64,000 bases of DNA from Clostridiales bacterium. Its GTDB lineage: Bacteria; Bacillota; Clostridia; Christensenellales; SZUA-584. The notes under the pieces are model-generated. The model was not told where the DNA came from. It ran no database searches and worked only from the letters and a program-made list of their open reading frames with translations. Of this stretch, positions 5,366 through 63,630 are shown piece by piece; within the stretch, counting starts at the first letter, position 1; each line of letters starts with the position of its first letter. The position numbers and the translations under genes were made by a program. Location of the stretch: the NCBI GenBank assembly GCA_029265435.1, contig JAJUJH010000001.1, positions 484 through 64,483 of the forward strand, read 5' to 3'.

Positions 5366-6922
5366 ATGAGATCGAATATAAAAGCGGTATTGGCGGTTAT
5401 CGTTTGTTTGGCCATGCTTCTTGCTGCGGCATGTTCGGCCTCGCATCCCGCCGAATCCGAATCGGCGCAGGCGTCCGTTCCGCCGGAAGCGCCCGCACCG
5501 GCGGAAAGCCCCGACATGCAGCAGATCGGGCTTCCGTCGCGAACAAAGGAAACGGGCAGCCCAAAGTATGTGTTTCTGTTTATCGGAGACGGCATGTCCT
5601 TTGCGCAGGTGAACGCGGCGCAGATATTCAAAGCCGCGGACGGCGATACGGCCATCGGAAGCCTGAGCTTTACCGTGTTTCCCGTTACCGGTACGGCGAC
5701 CACATTCGATCTGACGTCGGTCATTCCCGATTCGGCATCGGCGGCGACGGCGATGGCGTGCGGCATCAAAACCCAGAGCGGCATGCTTGGCATGACGGAG
5801 GATGATGAAAAGATACCAAAGAACATTGCCGAATTGTTCAAAGAGAACGGCGGAAAAGTCGGCATTGTATCCACGGTGTCTTTAAACAACGCGACGCCGG
5901 CGGCGTTTTATGCACATACGGATTCGCGGGGGGATTATGATGACATTGCGCGGCAGATGGCCCAAAGCGGTATCGATTATTTTGGCGGCGGGTCTTTGGT
6001 CAGCCCTTCCGGCTCAAAAGGACAGCAGGCAGACGCATTTGACCTGTTCGCGCAAAACGGGTATGCCATCGCCGATACAAAGGAAAAGATAATGGCGGTC
6101 AGCGGCGCTTCAGGCAAAACGTATGCGGTGAGTCCCGCGCTTCAAAGCGCTTCGGCGATGCCGTTTTCATTGGATGCGGAGAAAGGCGGGCTGACGCTTG
6201 CCGATTTTGTGCGGAAGGGGATCGACGCGCTTGATAACGAAAAAGGGTTTTTCATGATGTGCGAATCCGGAATGATCGATTGGGCATGCCACGCCAACGA
6301 TGCGATGACGGCCATTTCCGAAACGCTTGTGCTGGAGGATGCGGTGGCCGAAGCGGTCGGGTTCGCGCAGGCGCATCCGGAAGAAACGCTGATCGTTGTG
6401 ACGGGAGACCATGAGACGGGCGGCATGGCGATCGGCTGTGCGGATACCGGCTACAATACGCGCTTTTCACTGCTCAAAGGGCAGACGCTTTCCTATTCGG
6501 CTTTTGACGCCGCATTTCAGGAGCTGAAAAAGAGCAAGACGCAGCTGTTGATGAGCGATGTGGTGCCGCTTATCAAGCGGAGCTTTGGTCTTGCCGCACC
6601 GGATGATACGGCGGAAAACCTGTATGCCGTCCTGACCGCGGACGAATACCAAAGGCTGCTTGATGCGCTGGAGGCATCGCTTAACGGCGTACCCGGTTCC
6701 GATGAGGCGAAGCGGCTGTACGGAGGCTATGAACCGCTGACGGTGACGCTGACACATATACTTGACAACAAGGCGGGCATCGGCTGGACGACGTATGCGC
6801 ATACGGGCGGTCTTGTGCCGGTATATGCATACGGCAGGGGCGCGGAAATGTTCGCCGGGTCTTACGACAATACGGATATATTTAAAAAGCTTGCGAAAGT
6901 CTGCGGGCTGAACGCAGACTGA
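5366..6922 (+). CDS. Alkaline phosphatase (PhoA family) lipoprotein
   Basis: Lipobox LLAAAC. Active-site region VIPDSASAATAMACGIKT (D-S-A-x-x-x-T-A) and metal-site motif VTGDHETGG. AAAGGAG RBS before the ATG. Confidence 0.85.
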   Translation: MRSNIKAVLAVIVCLAMLLAAACSASHPAESESAQASVPPEAPAPAESPDMQQIGLPSRTKETGSPKYVFLFIGDGMSFAQVNAAQIFKAADGDTAIGSLSFTVFPVTGTATTFDLTSVIPDSASAATAMACGIKTQSGMLGMTEDDEKIPKNIAELFKENGGKVGIVSTVSLNNATPAAFYAHTDSRGDYDDIARQMAQSGIDYFGGGSLVSPSGSKGQQADAFDLFAQNGYAIADTKEKIMAVSGASGKTYAVSPALQSASAMPFSLDAEKGGLTLADFVRKGIDALDNEKGFFMMCESGMIDWACHANDAMTAISETLVLEDAVAEAVGFAQAHPEETLIVVTGDHETGGMAIGCADTGYNTRFSLLKGQTLSYSAFDAAFQELKKSKTQLLMSDVVPLIKRSFGLAAPDDTAENLYAVLTADEYQRLLDALEASLNGVPGSDEAKRLYGGYEPLTVTLTHILDNKAGIGWTTYAHTGGLVPVYAYGRGAEMFAGSYDNTDIFKKLAKVCGLNAD

Positions 6923-7011
6923 ATAGCAAGGGCGCGGCCCTTTGCCTGCGCAAAGCCGCACGCCATACGGTCAGCGCCCGGCGACGGCGGCTCGGATGCC
7001 GTTTGGGAAAT

Positions 7012-7809
7012 TCACTCGGCCTTGATATACTGGCTGACGATCGTTTGGATTTCGCCCGACGCTTCAAGCTCCGCGATTGCCGAATTGATGAGCTTGAGCA
7101 AGGACGAGTTGTTTTTGTTTACCGCGATGGCGTAGCTGTCCGTTCTGTAAAGCGTATCGAGGAGTTCAACGCCTGTGTTTTCAAGATCCAGCTCGACGGC
7201 GGGGGCACGGTCTGTGACGACGGCATCCACGCCTCCGCTGATCAGCGCCTGAACCGCTTCCGCCCCGGTTGCAAACCGGGATATGGGCGCTTCTCCGAAC
7301 TGCTCGACGCAATAGGTTTCTCCCGCTGTGTTTTCCACAACGCCCAGCTTTTTACCCGTCAAATCGGCGGGCGATGAGATATCGGATTCGCTCGGCACGA
7401 TGACGGCCTGTTTTCCCACCACATAGGGGATTGTGAAGCTGACGGACGCAAGCCATGTTTCGCTGGCGGTCAATGCCGCCATGCCGATGTCGGCCGTTCC
7501 GTTCTGCACGGCGGGAACGATTTCGTCGAATCCCATTTGTCTGATTTCAAGCAAATAGCCTGTCTTTTCCGCGATTTTCCGGGCAATGTCAATGTCGATC
7601 CCGACGATATCCTGTTCGTTTAGGTACTCGTACGGCGCAAACGAGGCGTCCGTCGCCATTACAAGCTTCGGAGGGCCCGTTTCATCCGTTGTTTCGCCGT
7701 CTGCATCGCCGACTGCGCTTTCTTCAATATTAAGCGGCGTACACGCTCCGAACACAGCGGACAAACCGATCAAAAGCGCAAGCAGCACCGCGGTTTTTTT
7801 TGCTTTCAT
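7012..7809 (-). CDS. Polar amino-acid ABC transporter substrate-binding lipoprotein (second copy in the operon)
   Basis: Internal ATG at 7809 gives MKAKKTAVLLALLIGLSAVFGAC (lipobox). FAPYEY...GIDIDIARKIAEK...DIGMAALT is the family-3 SBP signature. Paralogous to the 9519..10376 gene. Confidence 0.85.
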   Translation of the reverse strand: MKAKKTAVLLALLIGLSAVFGACTPLNIEESAVGDADGETTDETGPPKLVMATDASFAPYEYLNEQDIVGIDIDIARKIAEKTGYLLEIRQMGFDEIVPAVQNGTADIGMAALTASETWLASVSFTIPYVVGKQAVIVPSESDISSPADLTGKKLGVVENTAGETYCVEQFGEAPISRFATGAEAVQALISGGVDAVVTDRAPAVELDLENTGVELLDTLYRTDSYAIAVNKNNSSLLKLINSAIAELEASGEIQTIVSQYIKAE

Positions 7810-7958
7810 TTGGGGGTCTCCCGTCGGTTGAATTTTGGACGTTTTTATTATATGACATTTCTTGAAACCGCTCAATAAAGGCCGGACGATTATTTGTGCG
7901 ATACCGGAATGAAAATAAAAAAGCCGCGCAGACATGGCGCGGCCGCAGATTCGTTGGA

Positions 7959-8699
7959 TCAGAGCACCTTGGCGAGAAAGCTTTTCAGCCGTTCGCTTTG
8001 AGGACGGTCAAACAGCTCGGCGGGTTTGTTTTCTTCGATAACACGGCCTTCGTCCATAAACAGCACGCGGGTTCCCACCTCGCGCGCGAAGCCCATTTCG
8101 TGTGTGACCACCACCATGGTCATGCCGCCCTGTGCGAGAGACTTCATCACGTCAAGCACCTCGCCGACCATTTCGGGGTCGAGCGCGGAAGTGGGTTCGT
8201 CGAACAGCATCACGTCGGGGTTCATGCACAGCGCCCGCACGATTGCAATGCGCTGTTTTTGGCCGCCCGAGAGCTGAGCGGGGTAAGCTTCCGCGCGGTC
8301 TGCAAGCCCCACGCGCTTCAAAAGCGTCATGGCACGGTCTCTGGCTTCCTCCTCGGAAAGCTTGAGCAGCTTCACCGGCGCAAGCGTCATGTTTTTGATA
8401 ACCTTCATGTGCGGAAACAGATTGAACTGCTGGAATACCATGCCCATCTTCTGGCGGTGGATATTGATATCCACATTGGGATCCGTAATGTCTATACCCT
8501 CGAAGAATACGTGACCGCCTGTCGGAACCTCCAGCAGGTTCAGGCAGCGAAGGTATGTGGATTTTCCCGAGCCGGACGGCCCGATGATCACCGCGACATC
8601 GCCCTTATGAATTTCGGAATCGATGCCGTCAAGCGCTTTGATAGCGCCGTAATGTTTTTCAAGCCCTTGTGTGCGAATCAAAACGTCGTTATCGGTCAC
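7959..8699 (-). CDS. Polar amino-acid ABC transporter ATP-binding protein (GlnQ-like)
   Basis: Walker [10 protein letters not shown], signature LSGGQKQR, Walker [12 protein letters not shown]. Confidence 0.9.
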
Positions 8700-9393
8700 T
8701 GCGTCTCAGCCTCCTTTCAAGCTTGCTCACGCCCCACGAAAGCAGCATGACCAGCATCAGGTAGATCAGCGCCACCGCAAGCAGCGGCAGCGTGTACGCA
8801 AATGTGGCGCCGCCGATGATAAACCCGCCGCGCGTGAGCTCTTCAACGGAGATGTAGCCGGCTACGGAGGTTTCCTTGATCAGCACGATAAACTCGTTGG
8901 CAAGCGCGGGAACAACATTTTTAAACGCCTGCGGCATGATGATGTGCCACATCGTCTGATTATAGCTGAACCCAAGGCTTCTGCCGGCTTCAAACTGGCC
9001 CGCTTCAATCGCATTGATTCCGCTGCGGAATATCTCGGCCACATAAGCGCCCGAGTTGATGCCGAAAGACAGTATCGCAATCGGGATCTTATAATCGGTG
9101 GGTGCGGCGGCGAATATGACAAAATAAGCGATCATGATTTGCACCATCACCGGTGTGCCGCGAATCACCGTCAGATAAACCTTGCATATTGTGTTGCTGA
9201 TTTTGAGTTTGCCGGTTCTATCGTGCGTGGTGCGTATAACCGAAACGATAAAGCCGATTATGATGCCGATCATGACGGCGAACAGTGTGATGATCAGCGT
9301 ATTGAGCAAGCCGTTCGTGATGAATTTCCAGCGATCGTGATCGATAAAGGCGATTGTGAAATCCTTCACGAATTGCTGCCACCACTCAGCCAT
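8689..9393 (-). CDS. Polar amino-acid ABC transporter permease (His/Glu/Gln/Arg/opine family)
   Basis: Multi-TM protein with the EAA-like loop [15 protein letters not shown]. Overlaps the ATPase gene start by 11 nt. Confidence 0.9.
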
Positions 9394-10672: not shown

Positions 10673-12751
10673 ATGAACAGCCTTTTTCGTTTTTTTGTCC
10701 GGCACAAATATCTGGTGATTGCATGCGTGCTGCTTGCATGCGGCGCTTCGGTTTTGGGCATCCCTTTGGAAAAAACAAGCTTTGAGATGTCCGATTTTAT
10801 GCCAAAAGGGGCCAATTCGGTGGCGGGCGGCGAAATTGAAGCAAGGGAGTTTTCTTCGTGCGCTCAAGGCTATCTGCTGCTTGAAAACAAAGAGAACTGG
10901 CGGGCTGAGGCGTTAAAGAAGCGCATTGAAGCGATAGACGGCGTAAAGAGCGTACAATGGATGGACGATACGCTCGATATCTATACGCCCGAGGCGTTTC
11001 TTTCGGAGGATGTGCTTTCACGCTTTAAAAAAGGCGATTGCACGATCATGGTTATTTCGTTTGAGGGCGGCAGCCGGAGCGATTTTTCTGAAGACGCGGT
11101 GAGCGAGATCGGTTCGCTGCTTGAAGACGGCGAATATTTCGGCGGGCAGCCGGTGATACTGAGCGAGCTTCGCCAAACGCTTCACAGGGAACAGCGCCTT
11201 TATCTGCTGATAGCGGGTGCAATCCTTTTGGGCATACTCGCCGTTTCGCTATCCTCTTATATGGCGCCGCTGCTGTGCATACTCAATATCGGCATCGCGA
11301 TAGTGCTCAATTACGGTACGAACTTTCTAGTGCGCAGCCAGGTTTCGTTCTTGACGGTAGCTATTGCGGCGATTTTGCAGCTCGCCATTTCCATGGATTT
11401 TTCGATATTCCTGATCCACCGCTTTGAGGAGGATTTAAAGAACGGCGGCGGCAACGTCAGCATGGCGATGGTATCGTCGATGCGCGCCACGCTGACCGCA
11501 ATATCCTCAAGCGCGCTTACGGACTGCGCCGGATTTGCCGCGCTGATGTTCATGCAGAACCAGATCGGTCTTGATATCGGCATTGTGCTGTGCAAAGGCG
11601 TCGTTTTCAGTCTGATAACCAGCCTCACGTTTCTGCCGTGTGCGATACTCGCCACTTACGGCGTCGGGAAACGCAGCCACCGCGTGCTGATGCCGTCGCT
11701 CGGGCGGCTGTCGGATCCGCTTATCAAATACCGCTTCGTGCTGCTCGGCGTGGCGGCGGCTGCGCTGATTCCCGGCATTATCGGCAGCCAGAATCTGCGC
11801 TATTATTATACGTCCGACAAATTCATGCCGGAGGATGCGAAGCCGATCGTCGCCACCGAAAAAATCAGCGATACGTTCGGCACGACGGATACGGTGCATG
11901 TGCTTTACCGCAGGACGTACGCCGGAGAGGAAGAGGCCGCGGTAAGGCAGATCGGCGCGCTGGACAGCGTGCGCGAGGTATCCGCGTATTCAAACAGCGA
12001 GGCGGCGGCGGTGCCGGATGCGTTCATACCCGACGCGTTCAAAGACGCTTATATCGGCGATACTTACCGCCGGTTTACCGTTACGCTGCGGGGCGGCCTT
12101 GACAACGACACGCTTTTCGCCGCAATCGGCGATATCCGCGGTATCGCGCGTTCGCATTTCGGGGACGACAGCTATGTGACGGGCTCATACGCGAGCGCGG
12201 CGGATATGGCCTCGACGGCAAAAACCGATAATATGGCGGTGGACGTCATTTCGGTGCTGTTCATCTTCTTGATCGTAATGGCCGCGTTCAAGTCTTTGCT
12301 GATCCCTGTATTTTTGGTTGCCGTTATCAAGGCGGCAATCTATATCAACGTCGGCTGGGGCTTTTACTTCGGAGAGGATATGATTTTCATCACGCCCGTG
12401 CTTGTCAATTCGATACAGCTCGGCGCGACGGTGGACTATGCGATACTTTTCACATCGCGGTATGTGGAATTCCGCCGGCAATCGGGCGACGCCAAAACGG
12501 CGGTCAGACAGGCGATCGCCGCATCCACGAAGCCCATGCTGACAAGCGTGCTCACTTTTTATTTCGCCACGCTGTCTATCACGACGGTCAGCTCCATCAA
12601 AGCCACGCGAGAGATTGCGTCGGTGGTGGGGCGCGGCGCGCTGATCAGCTTTGTCGTCATCATGTTTGCGCTGCCCGCGTTGTTCATATTGTTCGACAGA
12701 CCGCTTCGGGCCACGACGTTTTCTCTGCGCGAAAGGAGAAAGAAGGGATGA
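10673..12751 (+). CDS. MMPL/RND-superfamily membrane transporter
   Basis: 692 aa with two blocks of about 6 TM helices, each preceded by a soluble loop. Sterol-sensing/MMPL-like segments (ISMDFSIFLIHRFEE, GATVDYAILFTSRY). Confidence 0.8.
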   Translation: MNSLFRFFVRHKYLVIACVLLACGASVLGIPLEKTSFEMSDFMPKGANSVAGGEIEAREFSSCAQGYLLLENKENWRAEALKKRIEAIDGVKSVQWMDDTLDIYTPEAFLSEDVLSRFKKGDCTIMVISFEGGSRSDFSEDAVSEIGSLLEDGEYFGGQPVILSELRQTLHREQRLYLLIAGAILLGILAVSLSSYMAPLLCILNIGIAIVLNYGTNFLVRSQVSFLTVAIAAILQLAISMDFSIFLIHRFEEDLKNGGGNVSMAMVSSMRATLTAISSSALTDCAGFAALMFMQNQIGLDIGIVLCKGVVFSLITSLTFLPCAILATYGVGKRSHRVLMPSLGRLSDPLIKYRFVLLGVAAAALIPGIIGSQNLRYYYTSDKFMPEDAKPIVATEKISDTFGTTDTVHVLYRRTYAGEEEAAVRQIGALDSVREVSAYSNSEAAAVPDAFIPDAFKDAYIGDTYRRFTVTLRGGLDNDTLFAAIGDIRGIARSHFGDDSYVTGSYASAADMASTAKTDNMAVDVISVLFIFLIVMAAFKSLLIPVFLVAVIKAAIYINVGWGFYFGEDMIFITPVLVNSIQLGATVDYAILFTSRYVEFRRQSGDAKTAVRQAIAASTKPMLTSVLTFYFATLSITTVSSIKATREIASVVGRGALISFVVIMFALPALFILFDRPLRATTFSLRERRKKG

Positions 12752-27864: not shown

Positions 27865-27912
27865 GATCGGTTTGAAAAAAGGCGTCGCGTCCGGATAAAT
27901 ATGAACGACAAA

Positions 27913-28109
27913 AGCCCCCGGCGTTTGCCGAAGGCTCAGAGTGTCGATAAGTCAAGAATATCATTTGTGGGCAAGACGGGCTTCGCCCGCGCAGCCCACA
28001 CCTTGCGGTTTTACGCCGTTTCGAGCTTGCGAAGAACAAGCAAAACCGGAAAACTGTCGGAAACCGAAGGTTTTTCGACAAGTGAGCCCTCGGCGTTTGC
28101 CGAAGGCTC
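27913..28109 (+). repeat. Structured intergenic repeat, copy 1: 147-bp core (27938-28084) flanked by a 25-bp duplication of the tkt terminator hairpin
   Basis: The core aligns end to end with 40323-40464 and 47419-47569. Flanks are AGCCCCCGGCGTTTGCCGAAGGCTC (27913-27937) and AGCCCTCGGCGTTTGCCGAAGGCTC (28085-28109). Confidence 0.85.
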
Positions 28110-40298: not shown

Positions 40299-40488
40299 AA
40301 AAAGAGCGGTTTGTCGCCGCTCCCAGACTGTCAATAAGGCTCAAAATATCATTTGCGGGCAAGACGGGCCTGGCCCGCGCAGCCCGCACCTTGCGCCGAT
40401 TCGAGCTTGCGAGGAACAAGCAAAGCCGGAAAACTGTTGTAAAACCGAAGGTTTTTCGACAAATAAAAAGAGCGGTTCGTCACCGCTC
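40299..40488 (+). repeat. Structured intergenic repeat, copy 2: 142-bp core (40323-40464) flanked by a 24-bp duplication of the fprA/rpsR bidirectional terminator hairpin
   Basis: Flanks are AAAAAGAGCGGTTTGTCGCCGCTC (40299-40322) and AAAAAGAGCGGTTCGTCACCGCTC (40465-40488), followed by TTTTGC. Confidence 0.85.
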
Positions 40489-42375: not shown

Positions 42376-42534
42376 TCATTTTTGCGACAGAAGCAGAAAT
42401 ACCAAGGCGGCAATCAGAAAAGGAACGAAAAACAGCAGGCGGGTGAAGTTCATCCGCCGAAGGAATTCCTTCTCCCTTTCGTCGTGCTGAGGGTTGCGAA
42501 TTTTGTGAAGAAGCCTTGTAAGTTTCTGTTTCAT
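42376..42534 (-). CDS. Small membrane protein (52 aa), translationally coupled to the upstream kinase gene
   Basis: Own translation: MKQKLTRLLHKIRNPQHDEREKEFLRRMNFTRLLFFVPFLIAALVFLLLSQK. Its ATG overlaps the kinase TGA (TCATGA at 42531-42536, plus strand). Confidence 0.4.
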   Translation of the reverse strand: MKQKLTRLLHKIRNPQHDEREKEFLRRMNFTRLLFFVPFLIAALVFLLLSQK

Positions 42535-43640
42535 GACGTAAAAAACCGTTCCTTGTCGTGGTAGCGAAGGTGAGAGGCGGGGAGCTCCGTATGGTTGAGC
42601 GGACTGTCCGTCAGCTCAAGCAGCCGCTCAAGAGGACGCGCGGCGCTGACGGCGTCGTAAGCGGTGCAGCACAGCGCGCCGGAAAGACTGGCAATGCGCG
42701 CGCAGTCCTCCAGCGAGAAGCCGCGTATCATCGCGGAAAGAAAACCGGCGATGGCGCTGTCGCCGCTGCCGAGCGCCGAGACGAAGCGTTCAACGCGGTA
42801 AGACGGCTGGAATATCTCCCTTGCCGAAAAACTGCCGCTCATGCCTGCGGATGTTTTGACATAAAGGCCATGAACGCCGCATTTGATAAGCGCGAGCCTT
42901 GAACCCATATCCAGGATACGGTTTGCGAGCGTCCGTATGCGCGAAAAATCCGGACGGCCGCCTGCGCAGATCCTCTCGAATTCGGGGCGGTCGAGCATGT
43001 ATAGCGCCTCGTCGATACTGGGCATAAACAAATCCACATGCGGCAGCGTTTTTTGAAGCACCGTTTTCCAATCCACTTTGCCCGATTCGCTTTGGGGGTC
43101 GGGCAGAGACATATCGAGCGACGTGACCGCCCCTTGAGCCTTGGCAGCGGAGAACAGGCGCACAAGCTCGGCGCCGTTGTTTTCGTACAGCCTCTTCATC
43201 ACGGTCGGATAACCGAAGTGAAAAAAGCCCGCTTCCCTTACACAGCGAAAATCGATATCATCCGCGCTGAATTCGTTGTTGTCAGCCGGATCGTGCAGTA
43301 TGATGCGGTCGATACCCGGCGGCGACAACACGACTGAATACGACGTGCGGCTGCCTTTCCGGCATGGCAGGCGGACGCCCGTTTCGCCTGCCGCGATGCC
43401 GGCAATGAGCTGACCGAAAGGATCGTCGCCGATTCGGGCAACGGGGTGCACACGCAGCCCCATTCTTGCCATCGCAAAGCCGGTATTTGAAACGGGGCCG
43501 CCGGCGGACACGGTGATGCCGTTCATATTGATGATCTTGCCGGGGCGGAAAAGCATGCCGATATCCTGAGCCTGGCCGGCTTCAAAGGCGGGACATACAT
43601 CCAGACAGATGTGTCCTGCCGCCACAATGTCGTATTTCAT
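42531..43640 (-). CDS. PfkB-family carbohydrate kinase
   Basis: N-terminal GHICLDV...GGPVSNTG and C-terminal ALGSGDSAIAGFL (the DTxGAGD-type motif variant). 369 aa. Confidence 0.8.
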   Translation of the reverse strand: MKYDIVAAGHICLDVCPAFEAGQAQDIGMLFRPGKIINMNGITVSAGGPVSNTGFAMARMGLRVHPVARIGDDPFGQLIAGIAAGETGVRLPCRKGSRTSYSVVLSPPGIDRIILHDPADNNEFSADDIDFRCVREAGFFHFGYPTVMKRLYENNGAELVRLFSAAKAQGAVTSLDMSLPDPQSESGKVDWKTVLQKTLPHVDLFMPSIDEALYMLDRPEFERICAGGRPDFSRIRTLANRILDMGSRLALIKCGVHGLYVKTSAGMSGSFSAREIFQPSYRVERFVSALGSGDSAIAGFLSAMIRGFSLEDCARIASLSGALCCTAYDAVSAARPLERLLELTDSPLNHTELPASHLRYHDKERFFTS

Positions 43641-45339: not shown

Positions 45340-45442
45340 GGCAGCGGTGTTTACCGACGAGAAAAGCAAACCCGAGCGAAAGCCGGGGACGCAAAGCCAT
45401 GAAGTCTAAAGCGCGATAGCGCCATGACGGTTCGGCCGCCTC
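45340..45442 (+). promoter_or_regulatory. c-di-GMP-I (GEMM-I) riboswitch aptamer
   Basis: AAAAGCAAACCCGAGCGAAAGCCGGGGACGCAAAGCCATGAAGTCTAAAGCGCGATAGCGCCATGACGGTTCGGCCGCC contains the conserved GCAAAC, GAAA tetraloop, GGGACGCAAAGCC and distal helix pattern, as in Vc2. Confidence 0.8.
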
Positions 45443-45466
45443 ATTTCGGAAGCGGCTTTTTATTTT
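45435..45466 (+). terminator. Riboswitch expression-platform terminator
   Basis: GCCGCCTC...GGAAGCGGC followed by TTTTTATTTT. Its 5' arm overlaps the 3' end of the aptamer. The adhesin RBS and ATG follow at 45481-45499. Confidence 0.7.
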
Positions 45467-45496: not shown

Positions 45497-47383
45497 ATGA
45501 AGAAAAGAATAACCTCGCTGCTCATTGCCCTGATGTTGCTCATCGCATTGATCCCGACGAAGGCTTTTGCGGAGGATGCGCAGGGACCGGAGACGGCGGA
45601 TGACGCGGTCATCACATCGGCTGAGCCAGAACAACCGTCGAATGCCGGATCGGATGCTCTGCAAGCGCCGGCGGCAGATGTTGCTGCGCAGTCTCCCAAT
45701 CTGCCGAAGCCCGAGATCACGATCGAAACGTATTGCGGCGGTACGAAAATCGACTATGAAGGCGGGAAGGTCGCCTGCATATGGTCAAGTATTTACAACA
45801 AATGGAAATTAGTTTCGGATGCAAAAGATGGTTTCAATTTTGACGGATTTTTTGGCGACGTTTATAAATATTATGGTAAATATTACGTCGATGCTGCGGA
45901 AGGAAAGAAAGTCACGGCAAAATTCGTTTGCTGCAATGAGGCTTTCAGAAAGCTGAAAATCAATATCGACGGAGAAGGTTCGGTGAGTACGGATCCCGGC
46001 GCGCTGTTTACGATTGGCGATGATCGTTATTATTATCCTGGCACGCGTGTCACGCTGACCGGGACGGCGGCGCATGGCTGGTGTTTCAAGAAATTCACCG
46101 GAGTCATCTGCAATAATAAAGTGGAGTTGTGGTTTAACAAGTCGGTCACCGCCCATTTTGAAAAATGCACCTACAATGTGGTCTTCAATCCGGGCATTCA
46201 TGGGATGCTGAACGGACAAACAAATCCTGTGACCGTTCCGACGCTGTTCGGAGAGAAGCCGGAAGAGCCTGCGGTAACCCCCTTTGACGGATACGGCTTC
46301 GCGGGCTGGTCTCCCGATATCGTTCCGGCGGACGAGGCACTCGAATATACGGCGCTGTACGACTGCATACCTTACAATATTGACTATGACTATGACGGCG
46401 GCAGTGCGGACAATCCCGATACGTACACTGTTGAGAGCGGCGAAATTACGCTCCGCAATCCTGTCAGGACCGGTTATCTTTTTGCGGGATGGAGCGGCAC
46501 GGGCATTGAAGACGGAACGATGGAGGTTGTCATTCCCGCCGGTTCGACGGGAAACAGAGAGTATAAGGCGCTGTGGACGCCCGTCACCTACTTTGTGACA
46601 TACAACAAGAACGGCGGCAGCGGCGGCATGACGGCGAACAGCACCCATGTCTATGACGTGGAATCCAAGCTGACCAAAAACGGTTATGATAAACAGGGAC
46701 ACGACTTCATCGGCTGGTCGGCTTCGCCTGATGCGGCAGCGGCGGATTATACGGATGAGATGTCCGTTATCAATCTGAGCAGCACCAACGGCGACGTGGT
46801 GGAGCTGTTTGCGGTTTGGAAACTCAAGAAGTTTGATGTCTCATTTTATCAGCAGGACGGCACCACACAGATCGGCGCCACTCAAACGGTGAACTGGAAC
46901 GCCGCGGCCGCGCTTGAAACGGCGCCCGCTGTGACCGGATACACGTTTGACAAGTGGGTGCTCACCGGAGATGACGATACGGAGACGACAAGCCTGACCA
47001 GCGTTAAAGAGAATATCAAGGCTGTGGCTGCGTATGAGAAAAACAAGTACACGGTCACGTTCGTGGACGAGCAGAACAAAGTGATCGCCACGCAGACCGT
47101 GGCTTACGGCGATGCCGCGACGGCTCCCGCACCGCCCGCAAAGTCCGGCTATACGTTTGCCGGATGGGATAAGCCGTACAGCCTAATCACGGGCGATCTG
47201 ACCGTGACGGCGCTGTATAAACGGATTGAGTCAAGCGGCGAGTCTGTTCCGGATACGGGAGACGCGGGTTCGCAGCCTTTCCCGTGGCTGTGGATCGGCA
47301 TAGCCGCTTTGCTTATCGGCGCAATCGCGGCAATAGCGGCGGTTCAATCAAAACGCGGTAAAAAGACCGGCGGCGCCGTTTAA
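45497..47383 (+). CDS. Cell-surface protein with five Listeria-Bacteroides-type (Flg_new) repeats and an LPXTG-like sorting signal
   Basis: Signal peptide. Repeat ends GYGFAGWSPD, GYLFAGWSGTG, GHDFIGWSAS, GYTFDKWVL and GYTFAGWDKP. C-terminus VPDTGD, a hydrophobic segment, then KRGKK. Confidence 0.8.
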   Translation: MKKRITSLLIALMLLIALIPTKAFAEDAQGPETADDAVITSAEPEQPSNAGSDALQAPAADVAAQSPNLPKPEITIETYCGGTKIDYEGGKVACIWSSIYNKWKLVSDAKDGFNFDGFFGDVYKYYGKYYVDAAEGKKVTAKFVCCNEAFRKLKINIDGEGSVSTDPGALFTIGDDRYYYPGTRVTLTGTAAHGWCFKKFTGVICNNKVELWFNKSVTAHFEKCTYNVVFNPGIHGMLNGQTNPVTVPTLFGEKPEEPAVTPFDGYGFAGWSPDIVPADEALEYTALYDCIPYNIDYDYDGGSADNPDTYTVESGEITLRNPVRTGYLFAGWSGTGIEDGTMEVVIPAGSTGNREYKALWTPVTYFVTYNKNGGSGGMTANSTHVYDVESKLTKNGYDKQGHDFIGWSASPDAAAADYTDEMSVINLSSTNGDVVELFAVWKLKKFDVSFYQQDGTTQIGATQTVNWNAAAALETAPAVTGYTFDKWVLTGDDDTETTSLTSVKENIKAVAAYEKNKYTVTFVDEQNKVIATQTVAYGDAATAPAPPAKSGYTFAGWDKPYSLITGDLTVTALYKRIESSGESVPDTGDAGSQPFPWLWIGIAALLIGAIAAIAAVQSKRGKKTGGAV

Positions 47384-47394
47384 CGGAATCGATA

Positions 47395-47593
47395 AGCAGG
47401 CCTGAAAAGCGGTTTGCTCAGAGTGTCGATAAAGCTAAAGATAATATTTGTGGGCAAGACGGGCTTTGCCCGCGCCGCCCACACCTTGCGGTTTTGCGCC
47501 GTTTCGAGCTTGCGAGGAACAAGCAAAACCGGAAAACTGTCGTAAAACCGAAGGCTTTACGACAAACAGAGCAGGCCTGAAAAGCGGCCTGCT
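47395..47593 (+). repeat. Structured intergenic repeat, copy 3: 151-bp core (47419-47569) flanked by a 24-bp duplication of the adhesin terminator hairpin
   Basis: Flanks are AGCAGGCCTGAAAAGCGGTTTGCT (47395-47418) and AGCAGGCCTGAAAAGCGGCCTGCT (47570-47593), followed by TTTTTGT. Confidence 0.85.
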
Positions 47594-60423: not shown

Positions 60424-60578
60424 TAAGGGTTAAGGTTAAAGTATAGGCAATAGGATTTCAAGCGCTTTGCAACATTGATGAGCACTTTTCACTGTTAAAT
60501 TTGCTGGAAAATGTATGGTTTTTATATTTAAGCATATCCTTAAAAAGCTATCTATCGGGATTAACGGAAAAGGAGCGT

Positions 60579-61559
60579 ATGATGAAAAGAAGTAATTTTA
60601 AAAAATATGTTTTATCTTTTAGTGGTGTAGCTATTATTTTAGTAGGCTTGTTAATAGTGTTACCAATATTAATAAGAGACCAGCAGGAATTATCTTTGCA
60701 GAATGAGGGTGGATCAAAGCAGCCGATCGATGAAGAAATGGCAGCAGGAGGAGATATCAATGAAGAAGCGGCAGTAGGAGAAGATATCTGCGGAACAATA
60801 CCGCTGACAAATCTGATCATAGAGACTGACTATAGAAAGCCCTCTTCACTTTATATTGGTAAACAGTACTCAGTTAGGTTTTCGGAGGAAGATAAAGAGA
60901 CGATAATTAAAAATCTAACGGAGCATGGTTGGAATAATGTTACTGGTAAACTTACGTATTTTGACTCAAAGAATCAGTCTATGTTGAATTTCTTCCAACC
61001 GGAGACATATGATGATTCGAATGACGGGAAAAAGGATGAAAGCAACTTTGCTGCAACAGAGAAGCATATTCAGTTTGCACAAAAATTTCTTGAAGACAGC
61101 GGTATAGTCAAACTACTGCAAGGATATAACATTGAGCTGTCCAACAAGCCATCTGATGAAACGTTCGCAACTGTTTTTTATGCTTATTTTGAAGGGTTTA
61201 GGACAGAAACCTATCTTAGGGTACAATTCTCTCCAGATGGAACATTAGAAGATGCGCAGTTATATGCAGTAGAACTTGAAAAAGCCAATAATACTCATAA
61301 TGTTTTATCTCTTGAAGAGGCCATAAAAAATGCTTTTTATTCCAGCGAAAGTACAAACATTGGTGATGACGAATATTTGATAACAGGTGTTAATGTAATA
61401 TATAAAAGTGGATTCCCGTTTTATGAGCTGAAATTGAAAAGCAACAAGAACAATATGGTTATGGACGGATACGCACTTGCTGTAGATTATAACGAAATAA
61501 AGGACGATAAAGAATTAAGTATCGCATTTGAAAGCTTAAAGCAAAAAAGCATATGGTAA
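60579..61559 (+). CDS. Hypothetical signal-anchored extracytoplasmic protein (326 aa), low-GC gene
   Basis: AAAGGAG RBS plus ATG at 60579 (MMKRSNFKKYVLSFSGVAIILVGLLIVLPILI). Acidic linker, Lys/Asn/Glu-rich body. Codon usage differs clearly from the flanking genes. Confidence 0.6.
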   Translation: MMKRSNFKKYVLSFSGVAIILVGLLIVLPILIRDQQELSLQNEGGSKQPIDEEMAAGGDINEEAAVGEDICGTIPLTNLIIETDYRKPSSLYIGKQYSVRFSEEDKETIIKNLTEHGWNNVTGKLTYFDSKNQSMLNFFQPETYDDSNDGKKDESNFAATEKHIQFAQKFLEDSGIVKLLQGYNIELSNKPSDETFATVFYAYFEGFRTETYLRVQFSPDGTLEDAQLYAVELEKANNTHNVLSLEEAIKNAFYSSESTNIGDDEYLITGVNVIYKSGFPFYELKLKSNKNNMVMDGYALAVDYNEIKDDKELSIAFESLKQKSIW

Positions 61560-63125: not shown

Positions 63126-63424
63126 TGGAAGGGTATATTAAACGAACGGCTTAGCAAATTGTCCGAAAAAGTATTGACTTCACCTGCTCAAAAAAGATGA
63201 TCCCTATTGTTGGAGCTGGATTTATAATAGAACTTGAAATGGATGGCATAAAATCGGGCATAGCTTTCGATGAATGTTAAAATAAAATCACAGCCGGAAG
63301 GGGGATGATGGATGATTGGGCGGATAGAGGGTAATTCGGGCAATTTCAAAACACAAATTACGGCAGTTCGACACATTGACCGTTAATGCTCCATATGATA
63401 TGCTTACTCCGTATTGAATATGAA

Positions 63425-63630
63425 CCATCGGGTGCCTTCGGCATAATGGAAAGCGTCGCTTTTCAGACTGCCAATGAAGGATAATAGGGAAAACGGTGAA
63501 ACGCCGTTGCAGCCCCCGCTACCGTATGGCCGACCGTCAGACATTCCGCCACTGAAGCAAACCGCTTTGGGAAGGCGTCTCAAACGGGATGAAGCCAAGC
63601 CGGTAAACCTGCCCGATGCGTAAGAGTCAG
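63425..63630 (+). promoter_or_regulatory. Cobalamin (B12) riboswitch
   Basis: AATAGGGAAAACGGTGAAACGCCGTTGCAGCCCCCGCTACCGTA, GCCACTG, GGGAAGGC, and a B12-box-like GAAGCCAAGCCGGTAAACCTGCC. Confidence 0.8.

Follow-up and report, generated by a model that had tools for sequence, protein, structure and literature searches.

The window analysed here is a 64-kb stretch (64,000 nt) of contig JAJUJH010000001.1 from a Clostridiales bacterium; homologues of its transketolase assign it to a Christensenellales-like lineage of the Clostridia. It contains three copies of a non-coding element of about 150 nt, each of which lies between two nearly identical copies of a rho-independent terminator hairpin. All three are located in convergent intergenic regions. 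Copy 1 lies between a uracil-DNA-glycosylase-family (UDG) gene and a hypothetical gene on the + strand and the transketolase gene on the - strand, copy 2 between the gene for a flavodiiron protein (+) and rpsR (-), which encodes ribosomal protein S18, and copy 3 between the genes for a Flg_new-domain protein (+) and a GGDEF response regulator (-).

Exactly three copies were detected in the window by nhmmer and blastn (E-values of 1e-47 to 1e-53). They are all on the + strand, are 83-90% identical and can be aligned over their whole length; the alignment contains a single 8-nt deletion, in copy 2, where it is located in the second of the predicted hairpins described below. An earlier note on this DNA had reported such a three-copy core on one strand with one 8-nt indel, its placement in convergent intergenic regions, and flanking repeats that are specific for each locus and carry one or two mismatches per pair. 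The searches, the gene annotation and direct reading of the sequence confirm this: over 24 nt, the three repeat pairs differ at one, two and two positions. Direct reading also agrees with the claim that the duplicated segment is the stem-loop of the local terminator and that the core begins at the 3' end of the stem.

In copy 1 (27937-28084, 148 nt, + strand, ending in ...CAAGTG), the left target copy (27913-27936, 24 nt, AGCCCCCGGCGTTTGCCGAAGGCT) is the stem-loop of the transketolase terminator, which is active on the - strand. The T-tract of this terminator, AAA on the + strand (27910-27912), is found just beyond the left target copy. The right target copy (28085-28108, 24 nt, AGCCCTCGG...), which has one mismatch to the left one, adjoins the stop codon of transketolase (28125) and lacks a T-tract on the - strand. 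The gene-distal (left) hairpin is therefore the only complete terminator at this locus. The boundary is given here with one ambiguity, as the C following the repeat may be assigned either to the repeat or to the element.

The left target copy of copy 2 (40299-40322, 24 nt, AAAAAGAGCGGTTTGTCGCCGCTC) consists of five A and the stem-loop GAGCGGT..GCCGCTC. It is followed by the element (40323-40464, + strand, 142 nt) and by the right target copy (40465-40488, 24 nt, AAAAAGAGCGGTTCGTCACCGCTC), which has two mismatches to the left one and leads into a T-tract on the + strand. The original target was a bidirectional terminator common to the flavodiiron protein gene (+) and rpsR (-). At copy 3 (47419-47569, + strand, 151 nt), the left target copy (47395-47418, 24 nt, AGCAGGCCTGAAAAGCGGTTTGCT) is the terminator stem-loop of the Flg_new-domain gene (+), with CC changed to TT in its 3' arm and without a T-tract. 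The right target copy (47570-47593, 24 nt, ...GCGGCCTGCT) forms the perfect palindrome AGCAGGCC..GGCCTGCT, followed by TTTTTT; the two repeats differ at two positions.

Direct repeats of 15 nt or more which are at most 5 kb apart were searched for throughout the window. The only neighbouring pairs that are stable hairpins are those at the three element loci, while the remaining pairs are located inside paralogous genes.

Empty sites and further copies

The earlier note had suggested looking for orthologous sites that are empty and carry a single hairpin. Such sites were found for all three insertions, in GCA_023408075.1 (loci L004 and L006), ENA ERZ27269197 (L007) and a Logan assembly (L008). 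In the closest other genomes, transketolase is 89% identical at the amino acid level and the gene order is kept. The transketolase site of L004 has one hairpin (12000-12030) with matching flanks and reads ...TAA-16 nt-AAGCCTTCGGCAAACGCCGAAGGCTTTTTTCGGTTCGTCAT, as compared with ...TAA-16 nt-AGCCTTCGGCAAACGCCGAGGGCT-element-AGCCTTCGGCAAACGCCGGGGGCTTTTGTCGTTCAT in the window. At the S18 site, where the window has the element between two GAGCGG..CCGCTC hairpins, a single hairpin (AAAAGAGCGGTTTACCCGCTCTTTTTT) is present in L007 (13155-13182) and at the same place in L008. The Flg_new site, at which the element lies between two AGCAGGCC..GGCCTGCT hairpins in the window, carries the single hairpin CAGGCCGG..CCGGCCTG-TTTTTTT in L006 and L007. 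A search of these four loci with nhmmer did not detect the element. For each of the window copies, the target of the insertion was a single terminator hairpin that already existed; a tandem hairpin that was present before the insertion is excluded, as the orthologous sites in the relatives carry one hairpin and no element. A site-specific att core was also considered and rejected because the repeats differ from locus to locus and match the local orthologous hairpin.

The same insertions are present in contig SAHD_10001294 of JGI metagenome 3300001682 (L003, L005), which represents a second strain or assembly, as indicated by its identity of 99.4% to the window. This contig ends within copy 3 (L005:18429-18543), where the repeated element probably broke the assembly. 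Since repeats can break or confuse assemblies, the arrangement could in principle be due to local duplication, recombination between terminators or an assembly artefact, with nothing mobile involved. We find this hardly credible. The hairpin is different at every locus while the core is constant, the relatives have the empty sites with one hairpin, and the same arrangement is found in two independent assemblies and in four other sources. In view of this agreement, the assembly artefact was rejected.

Eight further copies were found, two on another contig of the sample from which the window originates and six in metagenome-assembled genomes (MAGs) of other Clostridia and Bacillota and in metagenome contigs. 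A genome collection, which does not contain the source genome, gave only two loci: one in a Clostridia MAG (SZUA-584; L001), with a 21-nt hairpin duplication, and one in a Bacillota MAG (OH_CBlB_98; L002), with a duplication of ~27 nt, the left copy of which is decayed. A first metagenome search pattern (AACAAGCAAARCCGGAAAACTG) gave no matches. A second, two-block pattern yielded four loci, L010 and L012 (both on one 490-kb contig), L013 and L011 (marine metagenome), with duplications of 24-27 nt which are mutually unrelated in sequence. The two copies in the sample of the window (L009, 6639-6778 and 8876-9018) were reached via spurious open reading frames (ORFs) across the element: a six-frame concatenate was compared with 5.8 billion proteins and an 86-aa ORF with 1.84 billion representatives, the sole match being one protein (P0190/P0191) on this contig. 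Two different copies of the element, used as blastn queries in distant mode, had no match in the plasmid and phage collections, nor did the IMG/VR viral contigs contain a match. A literature search with stretches of the core sequence gave only chance matches in unrelated papers.

A hairpin duplication flanks nine of the 11 copies, from at least five sources, and measures 21, 24, 24, 24, 24, 25-27, 26, 26 and ~27 nt in the nine pairs. The earlier note had asked whether every copy has such a duplication. This does not hold for the two copies on L009, which are the most degenerate of the family and have no intact duplication: in one, the left end is lost and the right hairpin is the only one present, and the other has no hairpin on either side. 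The empty sites, together with the six copies in other genomes with their unrelated hairpin sequences, support the proposal of the earlier note that this is a non-autonomous mobile element which targets terminator hairpins and duplicates about 24 bp.

The genes flanking the element in L001, L002 and L010 have the same direction, and the element is located downstream of the first of them. What the sites share is thus a terminator and not convergent transcription. L001 shows an additional feature: its hairpin-element-hairpin array is followed by 38 nt of the left end of a second element (in the region 2141-2196), which stops one base before the stop codon of the neighbouring Na+/H+ exchanger gene. 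The arrangement would fit a second hit on the duplicated hairpin with a deletion, or an end-hairpin-end junction as in copy-out elements. Apart from this partial left end, no solo ends were detected with separate hidden Markov models for the left and right ends.

Ends, predicted fold and junctions

The alignment of the 11 copies defines the family ends as 5'-(T)CAGAsTGTCrAWAAG ... TTTTTCGACAAGCTs-3', an imperfect terminal inverted repeat of ~14 nt. About 11-12 of 14 positions match between the left end and the reverse complement of the right end, in line with the inverted core ends TGTCGATAA ... TTTTCGACA noted earlier; in copy 1, the left inverted repeat is CAGAGTGTCGATAAG (27937-27951). The copies of the family are 142-190 nt long, and indels of 8 and 40 nt are tolerated. 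The lack of conserved coding capacity stated in the earlier note is borne out, as no frame is kept. With these indels and the shifting positions of stop codons, a protein-coding function was rejected.

The consensus fold has three predicted hairpins, which in copy 1 are located at 27966-28000 (hairpin 1), 28006-28048 (hairpin 2) and 28055-28080 (right-end hairpin, TGTCGGAAACC/GGTTTTTCGACA). The last one reads TGTCGGAAAACC/GGTTTTTCGACA in the consensus, so that the right end itself is a palindrome. Folding of the single strand is predicted to be more stable than that of shuffled controls (z-scores of -2.5 to -4). Copy 2 has a compensatory change in hairpin 1 (TGCGGGC/GCCCGCA as compared with TGTGGGC/GCCCACA), and in L002 an insertion of 40 nt falls into the apical loop of hairpin 1, so that the stems remain intact. 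Of the conserved hairpins described in the earlier note, prediction and conservation stand, but compensatory changes are found in only three of 38 predicted pairs. As, in addition, deviations of the G-U type and the A-C type are about equally frequent, the predicted fold is plausible but neither demonstrated nor assignable to one strand.

Loop sequences such as GGGCAAGACGGGC are invariant across the family alignment, and many copies have a -10-like TATAAT box 5-6 nt 5' of a conserved GTGGGC. A scan of two copies for sigma-70 promoters predicted none, and scans for tRNA and tmRNA were negative. No described RNA family was matched by the element in the Rfam search that the earlier note had proposed, either with the gathering thresholds over the whole window or at E<=10 with copy 1; the best score was 15 bits, against thresholds of 44-270.

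The junctions are asymmetric. The left one is exact: in every case, the last base of the 3' arm directly precedes the element. Its right end is followed by 0-5 extra bases and then by the hairpin; these bases include those of the A-tract in copy 2, L002 and L013. With the left junction fixed at the stem and the other one 0-5 nt 5' of it, the length of the duplication follows the size of the stem-loop. Each duplication consists of the stem-loop plus 0-5 nt on its 5' side (21-27 nt), a whole repeat of variable length, as described for the insertion sequence IS1630 discussed below. The left flanks (GGCT, GCTC, TGCT, CCGC, TGCC, TGTT, TCTT, CCTC) have no motif in common. The orientation of the element relative to the direction of the terminator is not fixed, being opposite in copy 1 and L002 to that in copy 3, L010, L011 and L012. 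Such a pattern fits if what is recognised is a symmetric structure of the DNA and not a transcript.

In eight of the nine pairs (among window copies 1-3, L001, L002 and L010-L013), it is the left repeat that departs from a perfect palindrome while the right repeat is intact. This decay may reflect relaxed selection on a redundant copy, an explanation that is not separable from a mechanistic cause. Several of the changes in left repeats are transitions with which G-U pairing is retained on the transcribed strand.

Mode of insertion

[quoted passage not shown] The copies are shorter than 500 bp and non-coding, have terminal inverted repeats, and are flanked by a duplication for which relatives have the empty site. 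Like the classical MITEs (Correia, ERIC, RUP, BOX, Chunjie), they are small, non-coding, intergenic and present in several copies, with terminal inverted repeats, predicted structure and flanking direct repeats. In contrast to these, the duplications of which are 2-10 bp long and unstructured, the element has a low copy number and no known parent insertion sequence. Hairpin-duplicating MITEs are not mentioned in a review of prokaryotic MITEs from 2024.

The transposase supplied in trans would act at both feet of the palindrome, linking each 3' end of the element to one of the target strands. The palindrome itself would probably be extruded as a cruciform, or else be bound symmetrically by a transposase dimer. 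With the geometry usual for DDE enzymes, the bottom strand would receive the left 3' end where the duplicated segment ends on the right, and the top strand the right 3' end where this segment begins on the left. On either strand, the attack would thus take place at the 5' foot of the potential hairpin; the two feet are symmetric positions of a cruciform or of a dimer-bound palindrome. With the joining points at the feet, the stagger would equal the full hairpin length, and repair of the two single-stranded gaps would copy the hairpin to both sides of the element. Attack at symmetric hairpin feet would account for a duplication length that depends on the structure, for the absence of a common target sequence and for the unfixed orientation.

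The closest precedent is IS1630 of Mycoplasma fermentans, a member of the IS30 family. It has 27-bp inverted repeats and duplicates inverted repeats of 16-26 bp which are variable in sequence; only four of the seven copies in strain M64 have a duplication. The earlier note had contrasted the duplication of about 24 bp with the 2-14 bp of classical DDE elements; with IS1630, a duplication of such length has a precedent among DDE elements. Like IS1630 and the related ISMhom-1, the element has terminal inverted repeats and inserts at inverted repeats, which are duplicated as a whole with variable length and sequence, and some of its copies lack the duplication. IS1630 is autonomous, 1.2-1.4 kb long and equipped with an IS30-type DDE transposase and 27-bp inverted repeats, in an AT-rich Mollicute host, whereas the element has 142-190 bp, is non-coding, has inverted repeats of ~14 nt plus the right-end hairpin, and occurs in GC-richer Clostridia and Bacillota. 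The likeness concerns the insertion behaviour. In the literature searched, no insertion sequence other than IS1630 is described as one that targets inverted repeats and duplicates them. The insertion style has a published precedent in IS1630, and the element family, the miniature form and the Clostridia hosts are new.

By analogy, the likeliest enzyme may be a DDE transposase behaving like that of IS1630, a suggestion that is tentative and less certain than the transposon reading as such. We file the element as MITE-like, working like IS1630, with putative membership of the IS30 family. The targets of IS1630 reportedly derive from rho-independent terminators of neighbouring genes (Calcutt et al. 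1999). Other terminator-targeting elements were compared as well. IS1272/TnSha1 (IS1182 family) of staphylococci targets hairpins, many of them confirmed terminators, without primary-sequence specificity. In this it resembles the element, but its insertion leaves no duplication and costs the hairpin a part, which is deleted or replaced. Here, each of the two hairpin copies is complete, and an insertion of the IS1272/IS1182 type was rejected. Group IIC introns insert immediately 3' of terminator stem-loops. Unlike the element, however, they are ribozymes of at least 600 nt which make no duplication and have an orientation fixed to the hairpin strand. With ~150 nt, a duplication and no match to an intron in Rfam, this identity was rejected, too. 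We know of no mechanistic study on how IS1630 duplicates its hairpin targets.

Several observations weigh against transposition of a MITE-like element by an IS30-type enzyme. No candidate for the mobilising gene expected by the earlier note was found. Neither a transposase nor a longer element with the same ends is present in the ~190 kb examined (window and other loci), so that we infer the enzyme entirely. In detail, Pfam searches of the uncovered ends of the window and of L001, L002, L010, L012 and L013, together with precomputed Pfam results for L003-L009, revealed no transposase, integrase, Cas1 or reverse transcriptase, and no longer element bracketed by hairpin duplications was found with repeat copies up to 5-6 kb apart. 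Two of the 11 copies, both on L009, are without a duplication. Between hosts, the left 33 nt are only 62% identical, as compared with 83% for the interior (after removal of the search-pattern blocks) and 85% for the right end. A left terminus that is the least conserved part would be unusual if the terminal repeats alone matter. Identities of copies within a host and between hosts are nearly equal, which does not resemble the outcome of a simple burst of recent transposition. The element is on the G-rich strand in six of eight loci as judged by GC skew, a weak and statistically not significant tendency which would not be expected for a symmetric double-stranded target. The comparisons of left end, hosts and strands are based on small numbers and on a sample biased by the search patterns. 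They leave room for a fold that is required as a whole in cis, for a step with single-stranded DNA or for a function in the host.

In the first case, the whole ~150-nt fold would be a self-contained module needed in cis by a structure-specific enzyme, undescribed or host-encoded, and not a simple deletion derivative of an IS30-type element. For such an enzyme, the right-end hairpin of the element and the terminator hairpin of the target would both be recognition structures. The variant would account for the same ~150-nt architecture in distant Clostridia hosts and the equal divergence within and between hosts, as well as the absence of a visible parent element and a possible preference for one replication strand. 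We regard this variant as rather unlikely.

A host role of the structured interior as the reason why copies are kept, with mobility a matter of their origin, appears unlikely as well. The interior could act as a 3' untranslated region (UTR) or small-RNA module or as a protein-binding site, similar to REP/BIME or SPRITE elements. Such a role would be consistent with an interior that is 83-95% conserved between hosts, a value inflated by the search patterns, as against 62% at the left end. It would also agree with the invariant loops such as GGGCAAGACGGGC, with the L002 insertion that spares the stems of hairpin 1 and with the TATAAT box, and insertion would place the element into 3' UTRs by read-through. 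The orientation relative to the neighbouring genes, however, is inconsistent, the equal frequency of G-U-type and A-C-type stem changes favours neither strand as RNA, and the scan for sigma-70 promoters predicted no full one. Rfam gave no match even at E<=10, and close relatives live without the element at all three sites.

Transfer as single-stranded DNA by a hairpin-specific enzyme, either of the HUH/Y1 type as in the PATE elements of IS200/IS605 or another structure-specific recombinase, we consider improbable. The targets would be terminator hairpins exposed on the lagging-strand template, and the second hairpin copy would result from a secondary replication or repair step. The element is indeed built of hairpins, with the right-end hairpin 4-5 nt from the tip and the first one ~30 nt from the left tip, like the ends of IS200/IS605. 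Copies occupy one strand per contig (three of three in the window, two of two on L009), which is the G-rich strand in most loci, and conservation extends to the interior and not to the tips alone. PATE and REP/REPIN elements are likewise ~100-200 nt long, hairpin-built, intergenic and possibly strand-biased, but they make no duplication and use a fixed short target or REP sequence; the hairpins duplicated here are locus-specific. IS200/IS605-type insertion requires a fixed target of 4-5 nt at the left flank, in contrast to a duplication of 21-27 nt and flanks without a motif. The strand bias is not significant, and no Y1 transposase was found in any examined locus. The element was not accepted as an IS200/IS605-derived PATE, given its duplication and its motif-less left flanks.

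The duplication of a whole palindromic unit of 21-27 nt, with one junction exact and the other variable as in a leader-anchored ruler mechanism, is also reminiscent of CRISPR spacer integration. The repeats duplicated by Cas1-Cas2 measure about 28-37 bp, and the duplications of casposons 14-15 bp. A Cas1-type (casposase-like) integrase, or another enzyme that measures across a palindromic repeat, might act in this way. In our case, however, the length of the duplication tracks the size of the hairpin and not a fixed ruler, no link between casposases and terminators is known, and cas1 or casposon genes are missing from all loci examined. We consider it very improbable that such an enzyme is involved.

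Consequences and other features

By each insertion, one terminator becomes two, the first hairpin is parted from its T-tract, and 150 nt of structured sequence are placed in the 3' UTR of the upstream gene. As far as can be read from the sequence, only one hairpin copy would keep the T-tract, except where this tract is located on the A-tract side of the duplicated segment. Transcripts of the upstream gene would then often read through the first hairpin and the element and stop at the second hairpin. With termination moved in this way, the element would become part of the 3' UTR. The genes affected in the window are those for transketolase, the flavodiiron protein, ribosomal protein S18 (rpsR) and a surface protein controlled by a cyclic di-GMP (c-di-GMP) riboswitch.

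Insertions that duplicate a whole hairpin are very rare. An element of 150 bp for which nine insertions, several hosts and clean empty sites are documented is a compact substrate which may be useful for finding the enzyme and for testing the cruciform target. The family also breaks metagenome assemblies, as seen for the JGI contig that ends in copy 3, and its tandem terminators could mislead predictors of terminators and small RNAs.

The c-di-GMP-I riboswitch (RF01051, 65.6 bits) is located at 45355-45443, directly 5' of the 628-aa Flg_new-domain gene (45497-47383) whose terminator hosts copy 3. In L007, a tandem 24-nt repeat (CAGACTCAGACGGTGGCTGAAGAT) is found in the 5' region just upstream of the start of the Flg_new gene (repeat, 7843-7998; gene, 5936-7726, - strand). 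The intact transketolase terminator of GCA_023408075.1 is directly followed by a gene block (L004:12058-15260) with helix-turn-helix (HTH) genes and type I restriction-modification-like genes (Methylase_S, two N6_Mtase fragments); the window genome lacks them at this place. A PfkB-family kinase is encoded by one 369-aa ORF in the window (42531-43640) and has a length of ~370 aa in relatives; the JGI assembly has three gene calls in its place (L005:13463-14653), which suggests frameshift errors or a pseudogene.

Two observations were made at other element loci. Adjoining the hairpin-less copy on L009, within an 870-bp AT-rich intergenic region, a small ORF (8680-8830, - strand) may encode a basic peptide of ~47 aa and has its own terminator hairpin (8646-8675). 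L010 contains a 52-nt sequence twice (2149-2321), 121 nt apart and ~94% identical, which is unrelated to the element.

Towards its right end, between 60001 and 64000, the window has a GC content of 40%, as compared with ~54% elsewhere, and may contain foreign DNA. A 352-aa ORF in this stretch (60501-61559) has no match in Pfam. A cobalamin riboswitch (RF00174, 105.7 bits) is located at 63413-63630, near the end of the window.

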